Assembly: GCA_945787125.1 (NCBI GenBank)
Contig: CALZHW010000108.1
Coordinates: forward strand, 1-12,391
DNA: 12,391 nucleotides
Source: an uncultured Ectothiorhodospiraceae bacterium
Lineage (GTDB): Bacteria; Pseudomonadota; Gammaproteobacteria; S012-40
Direction of reading: 5' to 3'
The notes beneath the pieces are model-generated. The model was not told where the DNA came from and did not search any database. It worked only from the letters and a program-made list of their open reading frames with translations. Below, piece by piece: positions 1,846-7,445 of the stretch. Position 1 is the first letter of the stretch. Every line of letters begins with the position of its first letter. Position numbers and translations under genes: made by a program.

Positions 1846-1880
1846 AGCCAGCCCAAACCTATAGGGCTGGCTTTATTATT
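1846..1880 (+). terminator. probable rho-independent terminator downstream of the tRNA
   Basis: AGCCAGCCC pairs with GGGCTGGCT across the loop aaacctata, followed by TTTATTATT. Confidence 0.6.
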
Positions 1881-1967: not shown

Positions 1968-2012
1968 TTGACGCACACCCTTATTTTTACTAATTTCTGT
2001 AATAACAGAAAC
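1968..2012 (+). promoter_or_regulatory. sigma-70-type promoter (TTGACG-17-TAATTT) overlapped by the palindromic operator ATTTCTGT-AATA-ACAGAAAC (1993-2012)
   Basis: The -35 element is TTGACG (1968-1973). After a 17-nt spacer the -10 element is TAATTT (1991-1996). An 18-nt perfect inverted repeat, TTTCTGTAATAACAGAAA (1994-2011), overlaps the -10 and the likely +1, which is the classic autorepressor geometry. It lies 17 nt upstream of the regulator's ATG. Confidence 0.55.
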
Positions 2013-2028
2013 AACTGAAGATTAAGAA

Positions 2029-2556
2029 ATGAAGCTGACACCTGTAATGGAAAAATATATTCTTCACTGGGGAGAAATGGGTACCCGCTGGGGTGTTAAT
2101 CGTACCGTGGCACAGATCCATGCGCTGCTCTTCTTGTCTAGCAGGCCATTAAATGCTGAGGAGATTACTGAGACCCTAGGGGTTGCCCGCTCTAATGTAA
2201 GCACCAGTATTAAAGAACTGCAATCCTGGGGCCTGCTCAAAACTGTTTCCCAGATGGGAGATCGACGCGAGCACTTTTCGACAATGAAGGACCCCTGGGA
2301 GTTGTTCTACACCATTATGGAAGGCCGAAAACAGCGGGAGCTTGATCCAACCATGACTGTATTACGTGAGTGTGTGCTTGAAAGTGAGATTGATAATGAA
2401 ACCCCCGAAGAGGTGAAGGCTCGCATTAAAGATGTACTGGAGTTCATGGAAACGCTTGATACCTGGCACGACCAAATAAAAGACTTACCAAAATCGACTC
2501 TTTTAAAGCTAATCAAGCTAGGCGCTAAGGTTAAGAATTTTCTGGGCAAGACATAA
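2029..2556 (+). CDS. GbsR-family (MarR-like winged-helix, COG1510-type) transcriptional regulator
   Basis: The N-terminal sequence HWGEMGTRWGVNRTVAQIHALLFLSSRPLNAEEITETLGVARSNVSTSIKELQSWGLLK matches the GbsR/OpcR family signature (WG.NRT.AQIHALL ... ARSNVS ... L..WGL). The protein is 175 aa and sits next to a palindromic operator. Confidence 0.8.
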   Translation: MKLTPVMEKYILHWGEMGTRWGVNRTVAQIHALLFLSSRPLNAEEITETLGVARSNVSTSIKELQSWGLLKTVSQMGDRREHFSTMKDPWELFYTIMEGRKQRELDPTMTVLRECVLESEIDNETPEEVKARIKDVLEFMETLDTWHDQIKDLPKSTLLKLIKLGAKVKNFLGKT

Positions 2557-2574
2557 CTATTTTTTCGCCTATGA

Positions 2575-2594
2575 ATTTCTGTTAATACAGAAAT
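2575..2594 (+). promoter_or_regulatory. second copy of the palindromic operator (ATTTCTGT-TAAT-ACAGAAAT) in the promoter region of the downstream operon
   Basis: A perfect 8-4-8 inverted repeat lies 25 nt upstream of the ATG at 2620. The RBS AAGGAG is at 2605-2610. A possible -10 element, TATGAAT, is at 2570-2576. The half-sites are identical to those of the operator at 1993-2012. Confidence 0.6.
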
Positions 2595-2619: not shown

Positions 2620-3006
2620 ATGAATTCACTCACCCTTTTCATTATCGAAGTTCTGCTTTGTTTTGGTATTAGTATTTCGGTGATTTATTTACTCAAGCCA
2701 TTACTGCGTGATGTCCTTGTCGAGACCTGTGGCACACAAACACGGGCTGAGTTTTGGGTCATGTTTACCCAGTTGATGTTGATTATCTCGCCATTACTAA
2801 TTGTGATCTACTTTGCCCCCACTCAAGGGCACGACGCAATAAATGCCGCCGAAGCAATACAGAACACATTATTTAGAAGTTTACTAGGGGATTTTATAGC
2901 CCTGATGATGATTGGCCAGGTTATCTGGAAATCAATCCAACGCGAACCTCAACTAAATGAAACTCATGTTGATACGCAACTTGAATCAAGTGAACTGGAA
3001 AAATAA
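2620..3006 (+). CDS. small hypothetical integral membrane protein (about 3 TM helices)
   Basis: The ORF has a strong RBS (AAGGAG). It has hydrophobic stretches LTLFIIEVLLCFGISISVIYLL, FWVMFTQLMLIISPLLIVIYF and LLGDFIALMMIGQVIW. I recognise no family. Confidence 0.6.
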   Translation: MNSLTLFIIEVLLCFGISISVIYLLKPLLRDVLVETCGTQTRAEFWVMFTQLMLIISPLLIVIYFAPTQGHDAINAAEAIQNTLFRSLLGDFIALMMIGQVIWKSIQREPQLNETHVDTQLESSELEK

Positions 3007-3007
3007 T

Positions 3008-4291
3008 ATGAATGTACTTATTACAGGTGCCAGCGGTTTCATTGGTAGCCATATTACCCAGACACTGATTAAGGATGGGCACATCGTTACTGTTTGTGTG
3101 CGAATTCCTAAACTAGCCCAACAACGCTGGCCAAGCGCTCACGCCATCACAACCGACTTCAGTAAAGATCACCATTCATCTGAATGGTTGCCACGCCTTG
3201 ACGATATCGACGTTGTTATCAATGCCGTTGGCATTATCCGTGAAACCGGCTCACAAACCTTTGAAGCACTACACACTGCGGCCCCTTGTGCTTTGTTCAA
3301 GGCTTGTGAGAAAGCAGGTGTAAAAAGAGTCATTCAAATTTCAGCACTAGGTGCGGATGAAACTGCCTTTAGCCAATATCACCTTAGCAAACGCGCTGCC
3401 GATGAATGCCTCATGGAATTAAACGTAAATTGGTCAATATTAATGCCATCGATAGTTTACGGTCCTGGAGCCAAGAGCATGACCTTTTTTAGAGCCTTGG
3501 CGTCCTTACCATTGACGCCAATTATTGATAAGGGTGATCAGCCAGTACAACCTATTCATATAGATGATCTTATACAAGCAGTATCACAGATCATTCAGCC
3601 AGAGACATCTGGCCAACATCAAATCGAATTGGTTGGCCCTAAGGCTATTACGATTAAAGAGATTTATTCACTACTACGCCATTGGCTGGGCTTGGGAAAT
3701 GCAAGGTTCATTTCACTACCCTACCAACTCACACTCATTGCTGGGCGTTTAGGTGGTTTTCTTGGCAACACACCGATGACAACAGAGTCCGTCCAAATGC
3801 TGCGCAAAGGCAATACAGCTGACGTCACTCCATTTATTAAACAGTTTGGCTTTGAGCCCATTAGCTTTGAACAAGCACTGATAAATATACCGGCACAGCA
3901 GACTGATCGCTGGCACGCCGGTCTTTATTTCTTAAAACCGTTATTACGATTTTCTATCGCTTTTATATGGATCTTCACTGGCATCGTTTCTGCCTTTGTT
4001 TTCCCGATAGAACAAAGCTATGCCATGCTGGCCAAAGCGGGAATTACTGGAATCTGGGCGCCAATAATGCTCTATGGAGCAGCAGCTACAGACCTTACAT
4101 TGGGCTTGGCGACACTAATGGCATATCGCCTACCTATCGTTGTATCGATACAGATTGCAGTAATTATTCTCTATTCGATAATTATCACCTTTTCACAGCC
4201 TGAACAGTGGATACATCCATTTGGCCCGGTAAGTAAAAATATTCCATTTATTGTTGCAACGCTTACCATGCTCGTGCTGGAGAGAAAGTAA
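3008..4291 (+). CDS. NAD(P)-binding SDR/NmrA-like oxidoreductase fused to a C-terminal DoxX-like membrane domain
   Basis: The sequence from the ATG at 3008 begins MNVLITGASGFIGSHI (a Rossmann GxxGxxG). It has the YHLSK (YxxxK) catalytic motif and SIVYGPG. The C-terminal 140 aa or so are multi-TM (FIWIFTGIVSAFVF...PIMLYGAAATDLTLGLATLMAY...IAVIILYSIIITFSQPEQWIHPFGPVSKNIPFIVATLTML) and are homologous to the stand-alone ORF at 5815-6207. The ORF-track start at 2957 overlaps the previous gene and is less likely. Confidence 0.75.
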   Translation: MNVLITGASGFIGSHITQTLIKDGHIVTVCVRIPKLAQQRWPSAHAITTDFSKDHHSSEWLPRLDDIDVVINAVGIIRETGSQTFEALHTAAPCALFKACEKAGVKRVIQISALGADETAFSQYHLSKRAADECLMELNVNWSILMPSIVYGPGAKSMTFFRALASLPLTPIIDKGDQPVQPIHIDDLIQAVSQIIQPETSGQHQIELVGPKAITIKEIYSLLRHWLGLGNARFISLPYQLTLIAGRLGGFLGNTPMTTESVQMLRKGNTADVTPFIKQFGFEPISFEQALINIPAQQTDRWHAGLYFLKPLLRFSIAFIWIFTGIVSAFVFPIEQSYAMLAKAGITGIWAPIMLYGAAATDLTLGLATLMAYRLPIVVSIQIAVIILYSIIITFSQPEQWIHPFGPVSKNIPFIVATLTMLVLERK

Positions 4292-4764
4292 TGGACTACG
4301 AAACCCTTAAGTGGCTCCACATATTAAGCTCAACACTATTGTTTGGCACAGGTCTTGGCAGTGCTTTTTATAAGTGGTGCGCAGACCGCTGCGGTAACCT
4401 TCAAGCCATTTCCCATACCAACCGAATCGTTGTCATTGCGGATTGGGTTTTCACCACACCGACAGTGATCATTCAGCCAGTGACTGGCGTGCTACTGGTA
4501 AACACAATGGGAATCGCACTTACTGAACCGTGGCTGCTCGCTACATATATTCTTTACGCTATTGCCGGTGGTTGTTGGCTCCCTGTTGTCTGGCTGCAAA
4601 TCCGTATGCGGGATCTCTCCCTACAAGCTATACAAAAAAACACCCATCTTGATGACACCTATCACCGCCAAGCTCGCCTTTGGTTCTGGTTAGGCATGCC
4701 TGCATTTACAGCTATGGTGATTATCTATTTTCTGATGGTATTTAAGCCAACCATCGGTATATAA
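4291..4764 (+). CDS. DUF2269-like integral membrane protein
   Basis: The N-terminus MDYETLKWLHILSSTLLFGTGLGSAFY resembles the KWLH-type start I recall for the DUF2269 family. It has four predicted TM segments. Its start (TAATG at 4289-4293) overlaps the upstream stop, which indicates translational coupling. Confidence 0.6.
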   Translation: MDYETLKWLHILSSTLLFGTGLGSAFYKWCADRCGNLQAISHTNRIVVIADWVFTTPTVIIQPVTGVLLVNTMGIALTEPWLLATYILYAIAGGCWLPVVWLQIRMRDLSLQAIQKNTHLDDTYHRQARLWFWLGMPAFTAMVIIYFLMVFKPTIGI

Positions 4765-4774
4765 GGAGTACAGA

Positions 4775-5392
4775 ATGTCGAATATTAAAGAACCTGTCAT
4801 CAAGCAAGCATTAGGTGAAAGCTGGGAAGAACTTGCCGAAATCGTCAAGCAACACTATGACATCACCCCAGGTGAATCCTCTAAAATGACCATCAGAGGC
4901 GTAATGGATGAAGTCTATCACTCAAAGATCGCCAAGCTTTTTCTACTGCCCGGTAGAATCTTTGGCGCATTGGTACCCTATAAAGGAACGGACATCCCAA
5001 CCGAGGTACGAAACTGGACATCTGAAAATAATCACAAGGCGATGTTTTGGTATAGAACTCTGGACTTCCCTAATAAACCACCATTGATTTTTGCCTCTCG
5101 TATGGAACACATAACAGATGATGAGATTATTGAATATGTACGTTATGGCATGGGTATACGCATGGGGATGTCGGTTGATGATGGTGCTTTAATTTTTAAG
5201 AGCAAAGGTTATGTGTGGAAGATTGCCGGTATCACAATACCAATTCCAACATGGTTTATCCTGGGTGATGCAGAAATCATCGAAAAAGAAATTTCAAAGA
5301 ATGAGTTTTACATTGACTTCAATATGATCCATCCATTGTTCGGCCGAACATTTTCATACTCAGGTACCTTCTCAATTGCGGAGGATAAATAG
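4775..5392 (+). CDS. soluble hypothetical protein, DUF4166-like
   Basis: The 205-aa ORF begins 11 nt after the previous stop with the RBS AAGGAG (4765-4770). It has no TM segments. The family assignment is from memory of DUF4166, which is often adjacent to NAD-binding dehydrogenases, and is tentative. Confidence 0.5.
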   Translation: MSNIKEPVIKQALGESWEELAEIVKQHYDITPGESSKMTIRGVMDEVYHSKIAKLFLLPGRIFGALVPYKGTDIPTEVRNWTSENNHKAMFWYRTLDFPNKPPLIFASRMEHITDDEIIEYVRYGMGIRMGMSVDDGALIFKSKGYVWKIAGITIPIPTWFILGDAEIIEKEISKNEFYIDFNMIHPLFGRTFSYSGTFSIAEDK

Positions 5393-5393
5393 A

Positions 5394-5825
5394 ATGGCAT
5401 TACCTCCAAACATGAAAGAAGACTGTAAAGTAATTTTGTTTGATGGTGTGTGTAAGCTGTGCAATTTTTGGAGTCAATTCATAATAAAAAATGACCGAAA
5501 AATGATATTCATGCTTGCATCAGTGCAATCATTAGAAGGCCAACAAATACTCAAACATTTCAATATGCCGACAGACCATTTCGACACCATGTTATATGTG
5601 GAAGGCGATCAGTCATTTGAAAAAAGTGATGCCTTTCTTAAAATCGTCAACCAACTAGATCTCCCATGGAAATTATTAAATATATTTCGATTCCTGCCAG
5701 GGTGGTTTCGCAATTGGTTATACGACCGAATTGCGTTAAATCGGTATGCATTATTTGGAAAGTATGACCAGTGCTTACTGCCAACGCCAGACCACGCAAA
5801 AAGGTACTTAAGAAATGGCGACTAG
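5394..5825 (+). CDS. DCC-family thiol-disulfide oxidoreductase (DUF393)
   Basis: The sequence VILFDGVCKLCNFW carries the D-x-x-C-x-x-C motif of DCC/DUF393 proteins. The preferred start is the ATG at 5394, preceded by GGAGGA at 5380-5385, rather than the upstream in-frame ATG at 5376, which overlaps the previous gene. Confidence 0.75.
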   Translation: MALPPNMKEDCKVILFDGVCKLCNFWSQFIIKNDRKMIFMLASVQSLEGQQILKHFNMPTDHFDTMLYVEGDQSFEKSDAFLKIVNQLDLPWKLLNIFRFLPGWFRNWLYDRIALNRYALFGKYDQCLLPTPDHAKRYLRNGD

Positions 5826-6207
5826 TTTAGTAAAAGTCAATCATATTGGCCGTTATGGATTGGCTTTTGTTTTTTTCTACCATGGTTTAATACCCAAAAT
5901 ACTCTGGCCTAGCCAGGTAGAAACTAGCTTAGTAATGGCGCATAATTTTGGTGTGTCTGCGACAATAATTTCGTCCGCTGCAGGTGCAATAGAAATTCTG
6001 CTAGCGCTTACTATTGTTTTTTATATAAAATCCTTAATACCTGTGTACATCGCTGCTCTCATGCTCATAGTTCTACTATTTGATGTTTATTTGGTGATGC
6101 CTGAATTGCTAACAGAAGCTTTCAACCCGGTTTCAACAAACATTTCGGCCTTAGTGTTGTGTTATTTGATATACATTACTCAAACGCGAAAAGCGATTAC
6201 ACTATAA
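5815..6207 (+). CDS. DoxX-like family membrane protein (stand-alone paralog of the C-terminal domain of the 3008-4291 gene)
   Basis: The 130-aa ORF has four hydrophobic helices. YGLAFVFFYHGLIPKILWP...PELLTEAFNPVSTNISALVLCYLIY aligns with the fusion protein's FIWIFTGIVSAFVFP...PEQWIHPFGPVSKNIPFIVATLTML. Its start overlaps the previous gene by 11 nt. Confidence 0.65.
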   Translation: MATSLVKVNHIGRYGLAFVFFYHGLIPKILWPSQVETSLVMAHNFGVSATIISSAAGAIEILLALTIVFYIKSLIPVYIAALMLIVLLFDVYLVMPELLTEAFNPVSTNISALVLCYLIYITQTRKAITL

Positions 6208-6290
6208 ATGCTAGACAAACTCCCATTCCATTGAACTCACCACTACTACATCCTGTTAAGATGGCCCGGCCTATTCCGAGCCACCACTTC

Positions 6291-7445
6291 TCACAACTTC
6301 ATTGTTGAAGGACTTTTAACTAAGTCCTTCATTACACCTTCCAGACCGGAGTAGACATTGATATTGCCGATACGCTCGGTCACTTTTTCCAACACTTCCA
6401 ACTCCTTTAGACGCATTAAGGTTGGGTTGCCTTCAATCATCTTGGCAGTATTATGCAACGAGCGTGTCGCCGCGGTCTCTTCACGCCGCTTGATCAAATT
6501 AGCCTCCGCCGCCTTTTCTGCCTCAACAACCTGATTGAGGATGGTCTTCATATCACCAGGCAAAATGATGTCACGCACACCGACACTCTTGACCGAGATA
6601 CCGTGCTCCTCAACTCGCTGACGGATACCGTCAGTCATCACCTTGTTCAGTGCATCTTTATCGTTCAGCAACTGGTCCAAAGTTTTGGTGCCTACTGCTT
6701 CACGCAGCTGCAACTGAAACTCCCGGTACAGGTAATCGTTGAAATCCGCCAGCTTGCTCTGAGCCAGCTGTGGATCTTCCACCTTATAAGCAGCAGAAAG
6801 GTTAAGCCTCAGGCTCACCCGATCTTTAGTCAAAATCTCCTGACCACTGACCTCGACATTCTGCAAACGCAGGTCAATGTGCTTGACCACAACATTACGA
6901 TGATACTTCCAGTAGCCGTAGCTACCTGGCTGCAACAACGCTTCCAGTTTGCCGTTGACCAACAGTAGACCGACATGATTATCTTCCACTTCGGTGTAGT
7001 AGATGGTCTTAGACGCACTGCGCACCAACTGTGTGTTATGACCGCGGCCCAGCAGTGCCAGCAACGCCTTCGACACACGGAAGTCCTCAGTGATATCAAC
7101 ACGCTTCAACTCGATCTTCTCTAGACCCTTCCAGTAGATTTTGAAACTACCTGGCGCGACGATATCGACCAGCAGACCATCGTGGTACAACAGCCCCACC
7201 TCATAGTCGCTGAGCTGATACGCCTCAAGGTAACCTCGAGTCTTATCGGCAAAGGTAGAAACCAAAAACTTACCCAGACTGTGATCCAACTCATGACGAG
7301 TGATATCAAAGCGCTCAGTTTTTACATTGCCAAGCAGATCGACGTAACGATACCTTCCTGGCTCAAGGACACCCGCAAAGCGATTCTTCTTAAACAGGAA
7401 GGCCCTTTCGTTATCTGCAACATCTATTCTTTTAACGAAAAACAT
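6291..7445 (-). CDS. cytoplasmic SPFH/band-7 (stomatin-prohibitin-like) domain protein
   Basis: The C-terminal half (ILTKDRVSLRLNLSAAYKVEDPQ...ISVKSVGVRDIILPGDMKTILNQVVEAEKAAEANLIKRREETAA) is an SPFH core followed by a coiled-coil tail. The preferred start is the ATG at 7445 (MFFVKRIDVADNERAFLF), preceded by GGAGG. The ORF-track start at 7484 is GTG. There is no N-terminal TM helix. Confidence 0.75.
   Translation of the reverse strand: MFFVKRIDVADNERAFLFKKNRFAGVLEPGRYRYVDLLGNVKTERFDITRHELDHSLGKFLVSTFADKTRGYLEAYQLSDYEVGLLYHDGLLVDIVAPGSFKIYWKGLEKIELKRVDITEDFRVSKALLALLGRGHNTQLVRSASKTIYYTEVEDNHVGLLLVNGKLEALLQPGSYGYWKYHRNVVVKHIDLRLQNVEVSGQEILTKDRVSLRLNLSAAYKVEDPQLAQSKLADFNDYLYREFQLQLREAVGTKTLDQLLNDKDALNKVMTDGIRQRVEEHGISVKSVGVRDIILPGDMKTILNQVVEAEKAAEANLIKRREETAATRSLHNTAKMIEGNPTLMRLKELEVLEKVTERIGNINVYSGLEGVMKDLVKSPSTMKL

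Follow-up and report, generated by a model that had tools for sequence, protein, structure and literature searches.

The stretch of DNA analysed here (the window, 12,391 nt of contig CALZHW010000108.1 from an uncultured Ectothiorhodospiraceae bacterium) carries at 2029-2556, on the plus strand, a gene for a 175-aa GbsR-type regulator of the MarR family. It is flanked by two short palindromes and followed by six tightly packed genes on the same strand, a unit ended by a convergent SPFH gene. The first palindrome, putative operator O1 (1993-2012), reads ATTTCTGT-AATA-ACAGAAAC and spans the -10 of the regulator gene together with the region of its predicted +1. The second, putative operator O2 (2575-2594), is a perfect 8+4+8 palindrome, ATTTCTGT-TAAT-ACAGAAAT, and lies between the regulator stop codon and cluster gene 1. 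Neither is assigned to a strand. The two share the same 7-nt cores with a 4-nt spacer at each, and thus correspond to the two near-identical palindromes with common half-sites noted in a preliminary description of this DNA. O2 is placed 19 nt past the regulator stop codon and 25 nt ahead of the ATG at 2620, the distance that had been estimated before, and the Shine-Dalgarno sequence AAGGAG of cluster gene 1 stands in that gap on the plus strand (2605-2610). When the whole window was searched for TTTCTGT-N4-ACAGAAA with up to two mismatches, O1 and O2 were the only sites found, each with 0 mismatches. Dinucleotide-preserving shuffles gave a mean of 0.04 matches, and none of 200 shuffles contained two.

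The layout of both sites, 7-4-7 (8-4-8), is an inverted repeat with a 4-bp spacer, the form of operator recognised by GbsR and CydE. From this and from the comparisons below we consider it likely that one GbsR-type repressor, bound as a dimer to both 20-bp palindromes, controls its own gene as well as the six-gene cluster.

The assignment of the regulator to the GbsR family, made in the preliminary description, is borne out by several searches. Pfam MarR_2 matches residues 24-80 with 42.4 bits (cutoff 27, E 7.9e-11), and the protein therefore has the N-terminal winged helix-turn-helix that defines the MarR superfamily. In its AF2 model this block has a pLDDT of 86-93 while the C-terminal part is poorly defined, and a Foldseek comparison of the model with the PDB returned 5jbr first and 1ku9 second, the remainder being mostly MarR-family regulators. 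The top match in a PDB sequence search was 1ku9_A (MJ223), with an E value of 6.1e-12 over residues 13-140. The NCBIfam profile for CudC (NF047500) also covers the regulator, at profile positions 20-158 of 171 (E 1.8e-13), but the score of 50.7 bits falls short of the equivalog cutoff of 218, and it is consequently a relative within the family and no orthologue of CudC or GbsR. Likeness to MJ223 (PDB 1KU9) and to proteins of the GbsR group places it in the GbsR-type subfamily (COG1510; MJ223 fold), in agreement with the names given to close homologs, 'GbsR/MarR family' at NCBI and 'GbsR (MarR family)' at JGI. Sedimenticola, Thiodiazotropha, Motiliproteus and Sessilibacter have abundant homologs at 80-97% identity, as do many uncultured Gammaproteobacteria; when the assembly collection was queried for exactly the window regulator, no record was returned.

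Conservation of the palindrome in related loci

A scan of one genome per species yielded 80 loci with relatives of the regulator that are 56-88% identical to it. They come from Gamma-, Alpha- and Betaproteobacteria and from metagenome-assembled genomes (MAGs) labelled Planctomycetota and Verrucomicrobiia, and with the window they make up a set of 81 loci and 863,534 nt. In this set the motif, allowing up to two mismatches, occurs 160 times against 2.9 expected from block shuffles, and exact copies number 76 against an expectation of 0. Seventy-eight of the 160 copies stand at the O1 position, about 35 nt before the regulator ATG (78 of 81 loci), and 67 at the O2 position just past the regulator stop codon (67 of 81 loci). 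The remaining 15 are all linked to the operon, and none was found elsewhere in the 864 kb. One, in L026, is the real O2 of a frameshifted regulator and another, in L032, lies between the first two cluster genes, while the other 13 belong to Psychrobacter and form a third site upstream of a second fatty-acid desaturase gene and a DCC1-like gene.

The conserved unit is a palindrome of 20 bp (A-TTTCTGT-N4-ACAGAAA-T), in which the flanking A and T carry 1.3-1.6 bits. O2 is usually a better palindrome than O1, perfect symmetry being present in 49 of 66 distinct O2 sites and in 30 of 75 distinct O1 sites. Outside the palindrome, a right-hand flank T.ACTGAA is conserved at both types of site, at up to 1.8 bits (2014-2020 and 2596-2601 in the window). 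At O1 of the window this flank reads ACTGAAG (2014-2020, plus strand) and, placed 9 nt past the right arm, has the look of a third half-site, the flank consensus being T.ACtGaA. In some loci, for example L046 (tctgtaaTTTCTGTatatACAGAAAttacaga), the left flank mirrors this sequence and a nested symmetric element of 34 bp results.

Since the 80 loci had been chosen through the regulator gene, a reverse scan blind to the regulator was made, in which metagenome contigs were searched for the exact 20-bp pattern with no protein reference. Of 128 exact matches, 84 had a regulator homolog no more than 300 nt away, whereas 25 were too near a contig end to be informative, so that 84 of 103 informative matches (82%) adjoin a homolog. 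Among the 19 informative matches without a homolog, four lie beside DoxX/DUF2269/SDR or DUF4166 genes. The other 15 have neither a homolog nor the cluster, and 10 of them are inside long open reading frames (ORFs), which fits chance occurrences.

These distributions bear on two other explanations of the palindromes. If they were copies of a dispersed REP-like repeat without a regulatory role they would also be palindromic, this being the only feature in favour of such a view. The copy number and the positions of the copies led us to reject it: the window has two copies only, every copy in 864 kb is at a conserved operon position, and few matches of the blind scan lack both a regulator homolog and a cluster gene, most of these being the ones found in long ORFs. 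A widespread repeat, which had been named beforehand as the finding that would speak against regulation, is thus contradicted, and we give this explanation practically no weight. It might also be supposed that some other, unlinked transcription factor binds the palindromes and that the adjacent regulator has different targets, as a few exact sites are without a regulator homolog nearby. Against this, the regulator gene is flanked by the sites in some 80 loci from several phyla, the great majority of informative matches in the blind scan adjoin a homolog, a change in the half-site co-occurs with a change in the recognition helix, and the architecture is like that of the GbsR and CydE operators. 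An unlinked factor is therefore very improbable.

The recognition helix of the window regulator, ARSNVSTS (residues 53-60), is representative of the family in that ARSNVS(T/N)S is almost invariant across loci, which fits the near-invariance of the half-site. The form ARSNVSMS occurs in only three betaproteobacterial MAG loci, and the same three alone carry TTTCAGT-N4-ACTGAAA, at both sites. A different kind of departure is seen in L034 (a Thiodiazotropha MAG, 5967-6522), where the helix (ARSNIDTS) and the wing (GDPRD) have both diverged, O1 is degenerate (TATCAGT...), and O2 and the downstream cluster are absent. This regulator copy looks to be decaying or re-purposed.

A further explanation holds that the palindromes act as RNA hairpins, in attenuation, processing or stability, and not as DNA bound by a protein. 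The O2 region does fold as an 8-bp hairpin (-8 kcal/mol, z -4.05). Yet it is the sequence itself that is conserved, identical at both sites across phyla and in agreement with the operators of characterised family members, and 45 of 75 distinct O1 sites have changes in one arm that the other arm does not compensate. Moreover, O1 lies on the -10 and +1, so that its left arm would be largely untranscribed. The uncompensated changes, together with the lack of any Rfam family match in the region, led us to reject a role as RNA structure, whose probability we judge to be very small.

Promoter position and proposed mode of repression

In the window an intrinsic terminator follows the putative tRNA-Met gene upstream of the regulator (1846-1880, plus strand), with 9-nt arms that are 100% complementary (AGCCAGCCC...GGGCTGGCT then TTTATTATT). 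It shields the regulator gene from upstream transcription, and the gene must accordingly have a promoter of its own. The promoter scan places a -35 hexamer, TTGACG, at 1968-1973, a conserved position, and after a 17-nt spacer a -10 hexamer, TAATTT, at 1991-1996, both on the plus strand; with 10.6 bits this is the best sigma-70-like promoter in the window. The last four bases of TAATTT (1993-1996) are within the 20-bp O1 and three of them within the 18-nt core. A position-weight scan of the related loci found TTGACA-17-TAATTT to be the top sigma-70-like promoter in all 37 distinct gammaproteobacterial loci, with a mean of 12.4 bits. In each of the 37, TTGACA keeps the position x=-26 relative to the palindrome, with a mean of 7.3 bits for the -35, and the palindrome core in these loci begins with the last three T of TAATTT. 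O1 would thus cover the -10 and the predicted start site. The overlap proposed in the preliminary description therefore has a conserved promoter position behind it, the +1 itself being predicted.

The relation of operator to promoter differs in other lineages. In Psychrobacter, betaproteobacterial MAGs, Burkholderia and Cupriavidus the operator at the O1 position holds the -35 (TTGACA or TTGACT, formed by spacer and right arm). In B. cenocepacia (L081, 6957-7003) and C. metallidurans CH34 (L082, 6958-7003) TTGACA inside the operator is followed after 16-17 nt by TAAATT or TAGAAT, from which only 7 nt lead to the ATG. This short distance implies a leaderless message, and the regulator mRNA of Burkholderia and Cupriavidus appears to be of this kind.

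In the scheme that we favour, the 175-aa protein would bind as a dimer to O1 and O2 and act as a repressor. A dimer at O1 would lie across the sigma-70 promoter of the regulator gene (TTGACG-17-TAATTT), over its -10 hexamer and start site, with negative autoregulation as the outcome, and a dimer at O2 would shut off the six cluster genes, most probably as a roadblock to transcription running on from the regulator promoter. A little regulator mRNA might then still be made while the cluster stays off, until an inducing signal releases the repressor.

The gap of 25 nt between O2 and the ATG, together with the Shine-Dalgarno sequence in it, means that the operon transcript either crosses O2 or starts inside it or just after it, and a bound protein would be expected to repress in either case. 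Of the two, a roadblock is favoured by three observations. No conserved sigma-70 promoter was found near O2 in the gammaproteobacterial group, by eye or by position-weight scan, the best mean being 2.7 bits; the T-run that precedes O2 in the window (TTTTTT, 2560-2565, plus strand, ending 10 nt before the TTTCTGT core) has no hairpin upstream of it (dG -1.9 kcal/mol, z +0.4); and there are lineages without any O2, in which the cluster abuts the regulator gene. The preliminary description had one repressor controlling its own gene and the operon, and the comparative evidence upholds this; as to a promoter at O2, none is conserved and a block to read-through is likelier.

Alternatively, the regulator gene could end in a terminator, with the T-run at 2560-2565 as its tail, and O2 could be the operator of a separate cluster promoter that the repressor occludes sterically. 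A T-run is found ahead of O2 in nearly all lineages, and gammaproteobacterial loci show weak -35-like signals at two positions, x=-11 and x=8. Strong hairpins followed by a T-run precede O2 in L001, L015, L032 and L048 as well as in B. cenocepacia and C. metallidurans, and in Psychrobacter both O2 and the third sites have TTGACA as part of the operator and, 17 nt further downstream, TATAAA. On the other hand, no promoter position is conserved around O2, where the mean score is far below that at O1 (2.7 against 12.4 bits), the window T-run is without a hairpin and the best local promoter candidates are weak, and with a -35 inside O2 transcription would begin no earlier than the Shine-Dalgarno sequence. 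For the window a separate promoter is in our view a real possibility, though the less probable one.

Several considerations weigh against the scheme of a single repressor with a roadblock at O2. The association of motif and regulator in the 81 loci is partly one of construction, given how 80 of them were picked. The co-variation of recognition helix and half-site is, as far as the sequences indicate, that of a single lineage and so one evolutionary event. MarR-family proteins occasionally activate transcription. Finally, the intrinsic terminator between regulator and O2 is convincing in Burkholderia, in Cupriavidus and in some gammaproteobacterial loci, and with the promoter elements in and after O2 of Psychrobacter it indicates that in those lineages at least O2 probably serves a separate promoter and not a roadblock. 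By these signals, a separate promoter clearly accounts better for Psychrobacter, and plausibly does so for Burkholderia and Cupriavidus.

The T-run deserves attention in its own right, as in most lineages it, or AAAATTT in its place, stops exactly 9 nt short of the O2-type site, third sites included. This gap is found in 36 of 47 distinct contexts that have a T-run of at least 4, and in six of eight independent metagenome sites. A hairpin before the T-run is significant in few loci only. As a plain intrinsic terminator the T-run was rejected, hairpins being confined to few loci and absent from the window, and the fixed 9-nt spacing would be left unexplained; readings as an UP-element or a -35 fit Psychrobacter only and were likewise set aside. 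RNA polymerase halted by a roadblock stalls about 13-15 bp before the obstacle. At that distance the spacing of 9 nt would bring the 3' end of the RNA into or near the U-tract when the repressor is bound. O2 might then be a composite of T-tract and roadblock, a protein-gated intrinsic terminator at which stalled polymerase releases its transcript at the U-tract, although we put this forward as a speculative and rather unlikely extension of the roadblock. If it were true, one promoter would keep making the repressor with the cluster shut, read-through would come only after an inducer removes the repressor, and the device would be conserved across Proteobacteria.

Relatives of the regulator and the possible signal

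Among characterised systems the closest are CydE of Alishewanella sp. WH16-1 and CioR of Chromobacterium violaceum, GbsR-type repressors of cytochrome bd operons (PMC6096048, PMC11837568). Like them, the window regulator is a proteobacterial GbsR-type MarR protein encoded first in the unit that it is predicted to repress, an arrangement that entails autoregulation. The CydE footprint, TTTCAGA-AATT-TCTGAAA (PMC6096048), is also a 7-4-7 inverted repeat with TTTC...GAAA ends, but the inner half-site differs, CTGT/ACAG in the window as against CAGA/TCTG for CydE. Unlike CydE and CioR, the window system has a second operator after the regulator gene, and its predicted targets are the SDR-DoxX_3, DUF2269, DUF4166, DCC1-like and DoxX_3 genes instead of cytochrome bd. 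Genes for cytochrome bd are absent from the window, and cydA or cydB occurs downstream of the regulator homolog in 0 of 52 metagenome loci. The regulator is 47% identical over its full length (172 residues) to a Ralstonia regulator whose gene immediately precedes those of cytochrome bd subunits I and II, which makes it a member of a sister group of CydE and CioR and not one of them.

The founder of the family, GbsR of Bacillus subtilis, has an A/T-rich inverted-repeat operator with a 4-bp spacer, located downstream of the start site, where it acts as a roadblock (PMC7396694). The family, the operator form and the roadblock, here proposed for O2, are common to both systems. GbsR differs in that its targets are osmoprotectant genes and its ligand is choline, sensed by way of a predicted aromatic cage (PMC7396694, PMC6207618); the passages of these papers that were read describe no autoregulatory operator for gbsR. 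No gbsAB or opu osmoprotectant genes, the mark of the osmostress group, were found in the window or downstream in the related loci examined. OpcR of B. subtilis is in some ways nearer to O1, being a GbsR-type repressor whose operator lies on a core promoter element and which works by steric occlusion, as proposed here; OpcR sits on the -35 (PMC7396694), whereas O1 is on the -10 and +1, and spacer length and targets differ. An overlap with the -35 such as that of OpcR does occur in the relatives from Psychrobacter, Burkholderia and Cupriavidus.

It had been stated that GbsR-type regulators characteristically respond to quaternary amine or aromatic ligands. This holds only for the Bacillus osmostress subgroup, whose founding members sense choline or glycine betaine through an aromatic cage of about six residues near the linker (PMC6207618); the cage is absent from the non-osmostress groups, and its segment is absent from MJ223, the structure used there to model GbsR proteins. 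The window protein is a sister of CydE and CioR, and the signals reported for these are sulfate for CydE (PMC6096048), and for CioR cyanide in vivo and Zn/Fe in vitro (PMC11837568). The regulator aligns with MJ223 with four gap positions only, which speaks indirectly against an inserted cage. Within the regulator family W90 and F83 hardly vary, unlike F93 and Y94, and C115 is conserved at 82%.

In Bacillus subtilis, MarR repressors of the MhqR type control quinone-detoxification genes, including the DoxX-like MhqP. There, too, a MarR-family repressor is set over oxidoreductases and a DoxX-family membrane protein, but the MarR subfamily is a different one and the likeness is an analogy only.

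In the library searched there was no paper that describes this regulator subfamily, its operator or its regulon, none on DUF4166 or linking GbsR with DoxX, nothing relevant on GbsR and desaturases, and incidental mentions only of DUF2269. Autoregulation by a MarR-type repressor is a conventional mechanism; the novelty lies in the subfamily, the extremely conserved operator and the conserved regulon.

The downstream cluster and neighbouring features

All six cluster genes are on the plus strand. The first (2620-3006) encodes a predicted membrane protein of 128 aa for which profile searches gave no family match, and it is kept downstream of the regulator in many gammaproteobacterial loci. The second (3008-4291) encodes an NDUFA9-like NAD(P)-binding short-chain dehydrogenase/reductase (SDR) fused to a DoxX_3 membrane domain (Epimerase 4.4e-18, NAD_binding_10 1.2e-16, DoxX_3 8.4e-27); its ORF opens at 2957 and the likely start is M18 at 3008. 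The SDR domain is closest to the 39-kDa/NDUFA9 subunit of complex I (PDB 9g83_P, 1.1e-24; 7arc_P, 2.6e-23), and many mitochondrial NDUFA9 chains match it at about 1e-14. There follow a DUF2269 integral membrane protein (4291-4764, 7.4e-59), a DUF4166 protein (4775-5392, 6.4e-36), a DCC1-like thiol-disulfide oxidoreductase with a CKLC motif (5394-5825, 8.5e-28; the ORF opens at TTG 5376 and ATG 5394 is the likely start) and, as the last gene before SPFH, a stand-alone DoxX_3 membrane protein (5815-6207, 5.5e-15). PDB sequence searches with the DUF4166 and the DCC1-like protein found no relatives.

The set of genes downstream of the regulator recurs across lineages and consists of DUF4166, SDR, DCC1-like, DoxX_3 and DUF2269 genes, sometimes with fatty-acid desaturases; in no case did it include a cytochrome bd gene. 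In the 52 metagenome loci that have a regulator homolog and at least 1 kb downstream of it, the genes met with are DUF4166, SDR-DUF1731, DCC1-like, SDR-DoxX, DUF2269 or fatty-acid desaturase genes. The six-gene cluster and its coupling to the palindromes, both part of the preliminary description, are thus confirmed as regards the gene count and the linkage of the sites to a recurring gene set.

Two variants of this arrangement were noted. In Psychrobacter (L059-L080) the order is regulator, fatty-acid desaturase, a 174-aa protein, an SDR with DUF1731, a 152-aa protein and the third operator, which precedes the second desaturase gene and the DCC1-like gene (e.g. L067, 6561 and 9788). All three Psychrobacter operators contain TTGACA and hence overlap a -35. 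In Pelagibius sp. (L043, 7330-9213) a single protein of 627 aa combines an N-terminal region, an SDR epimerase, DUF1731 and a DCC1-like part, a gene fusion that supports a functional tie between the SDR and DCC components of the regulon.

For a gene set made up almost entirely of uncharacterised domains (DUF4166, DUF2269, DoxX_3, DCC1-like and an NDUFA9-like SDR with a membrane anchor), sequence comparison thus provides a regulon prediction of high confidence. The gene set and the operator are conserved across Gamma-, Alpha- and Betaproteobacteria, and their carriers include tractable organisms such as Burkholderia cenocepacia, Cupriavidus metallidurans CH34 and Psychrobacter. Complete genomes with the system include those of Motiliproteus (OZ246016), Psychrobacter (CP195536) and CH34 (NC_007974 and NC_007973). 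The NDUFA9-type subunit of complex I sits near the quinone site. A sister group that controls a quinol oxidase, and a core target that is an NDUFA9-like SDR with a DoxX anchor, point to a function in respiratory or quinone-related stress, and together they suggest that GbsR-type regulators may control a second stress module, related to the respiratory chain or to quinones. If the proposed repression holds, loss of the repressor should switch the cluster on, and this would offer a route to the function of the cluster and to the inducing signal.

Upstream of the regulator lies rpoD (83-1576), which has its own terminator. Directly after it is a tRNA with a CAU anticodon (1677-1753), called tRNA-Met by ARAGORN; the CAU tRNA that E. 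coli has near rpoD is ileX, a lysidine-modified tRNA-Ile2.

At the rtcR/rtcBA locus in the window there is a tRNA-like element just downstream of rtcA (7769-7840, minus strand, with 7716-7730 and 7787-7880). It scores 40.8 bits with the Rfam tRNA model (gathering 29) and was not called by ARAGORN. Overlapping it is a weak match to YrlA, a Y-RNA-like family, which stays below gathering (19.6 bits, E 0.21), and next comes a second T-arm-like hairpin; the window has no Ro/Rsr gene. The element may be a tRNA-like non-coding RNA tied to the RNA-repair operon. Immediately past the rtcA stop codon, at 8056-8106, is a long AT-rich near-perfect palindrome (TAGTACCTAAGAAAT...ATTTCTAAGGTACT). A match to a microRNA family at this position is spurious and caused by the palindrome, which is probably a terminator.

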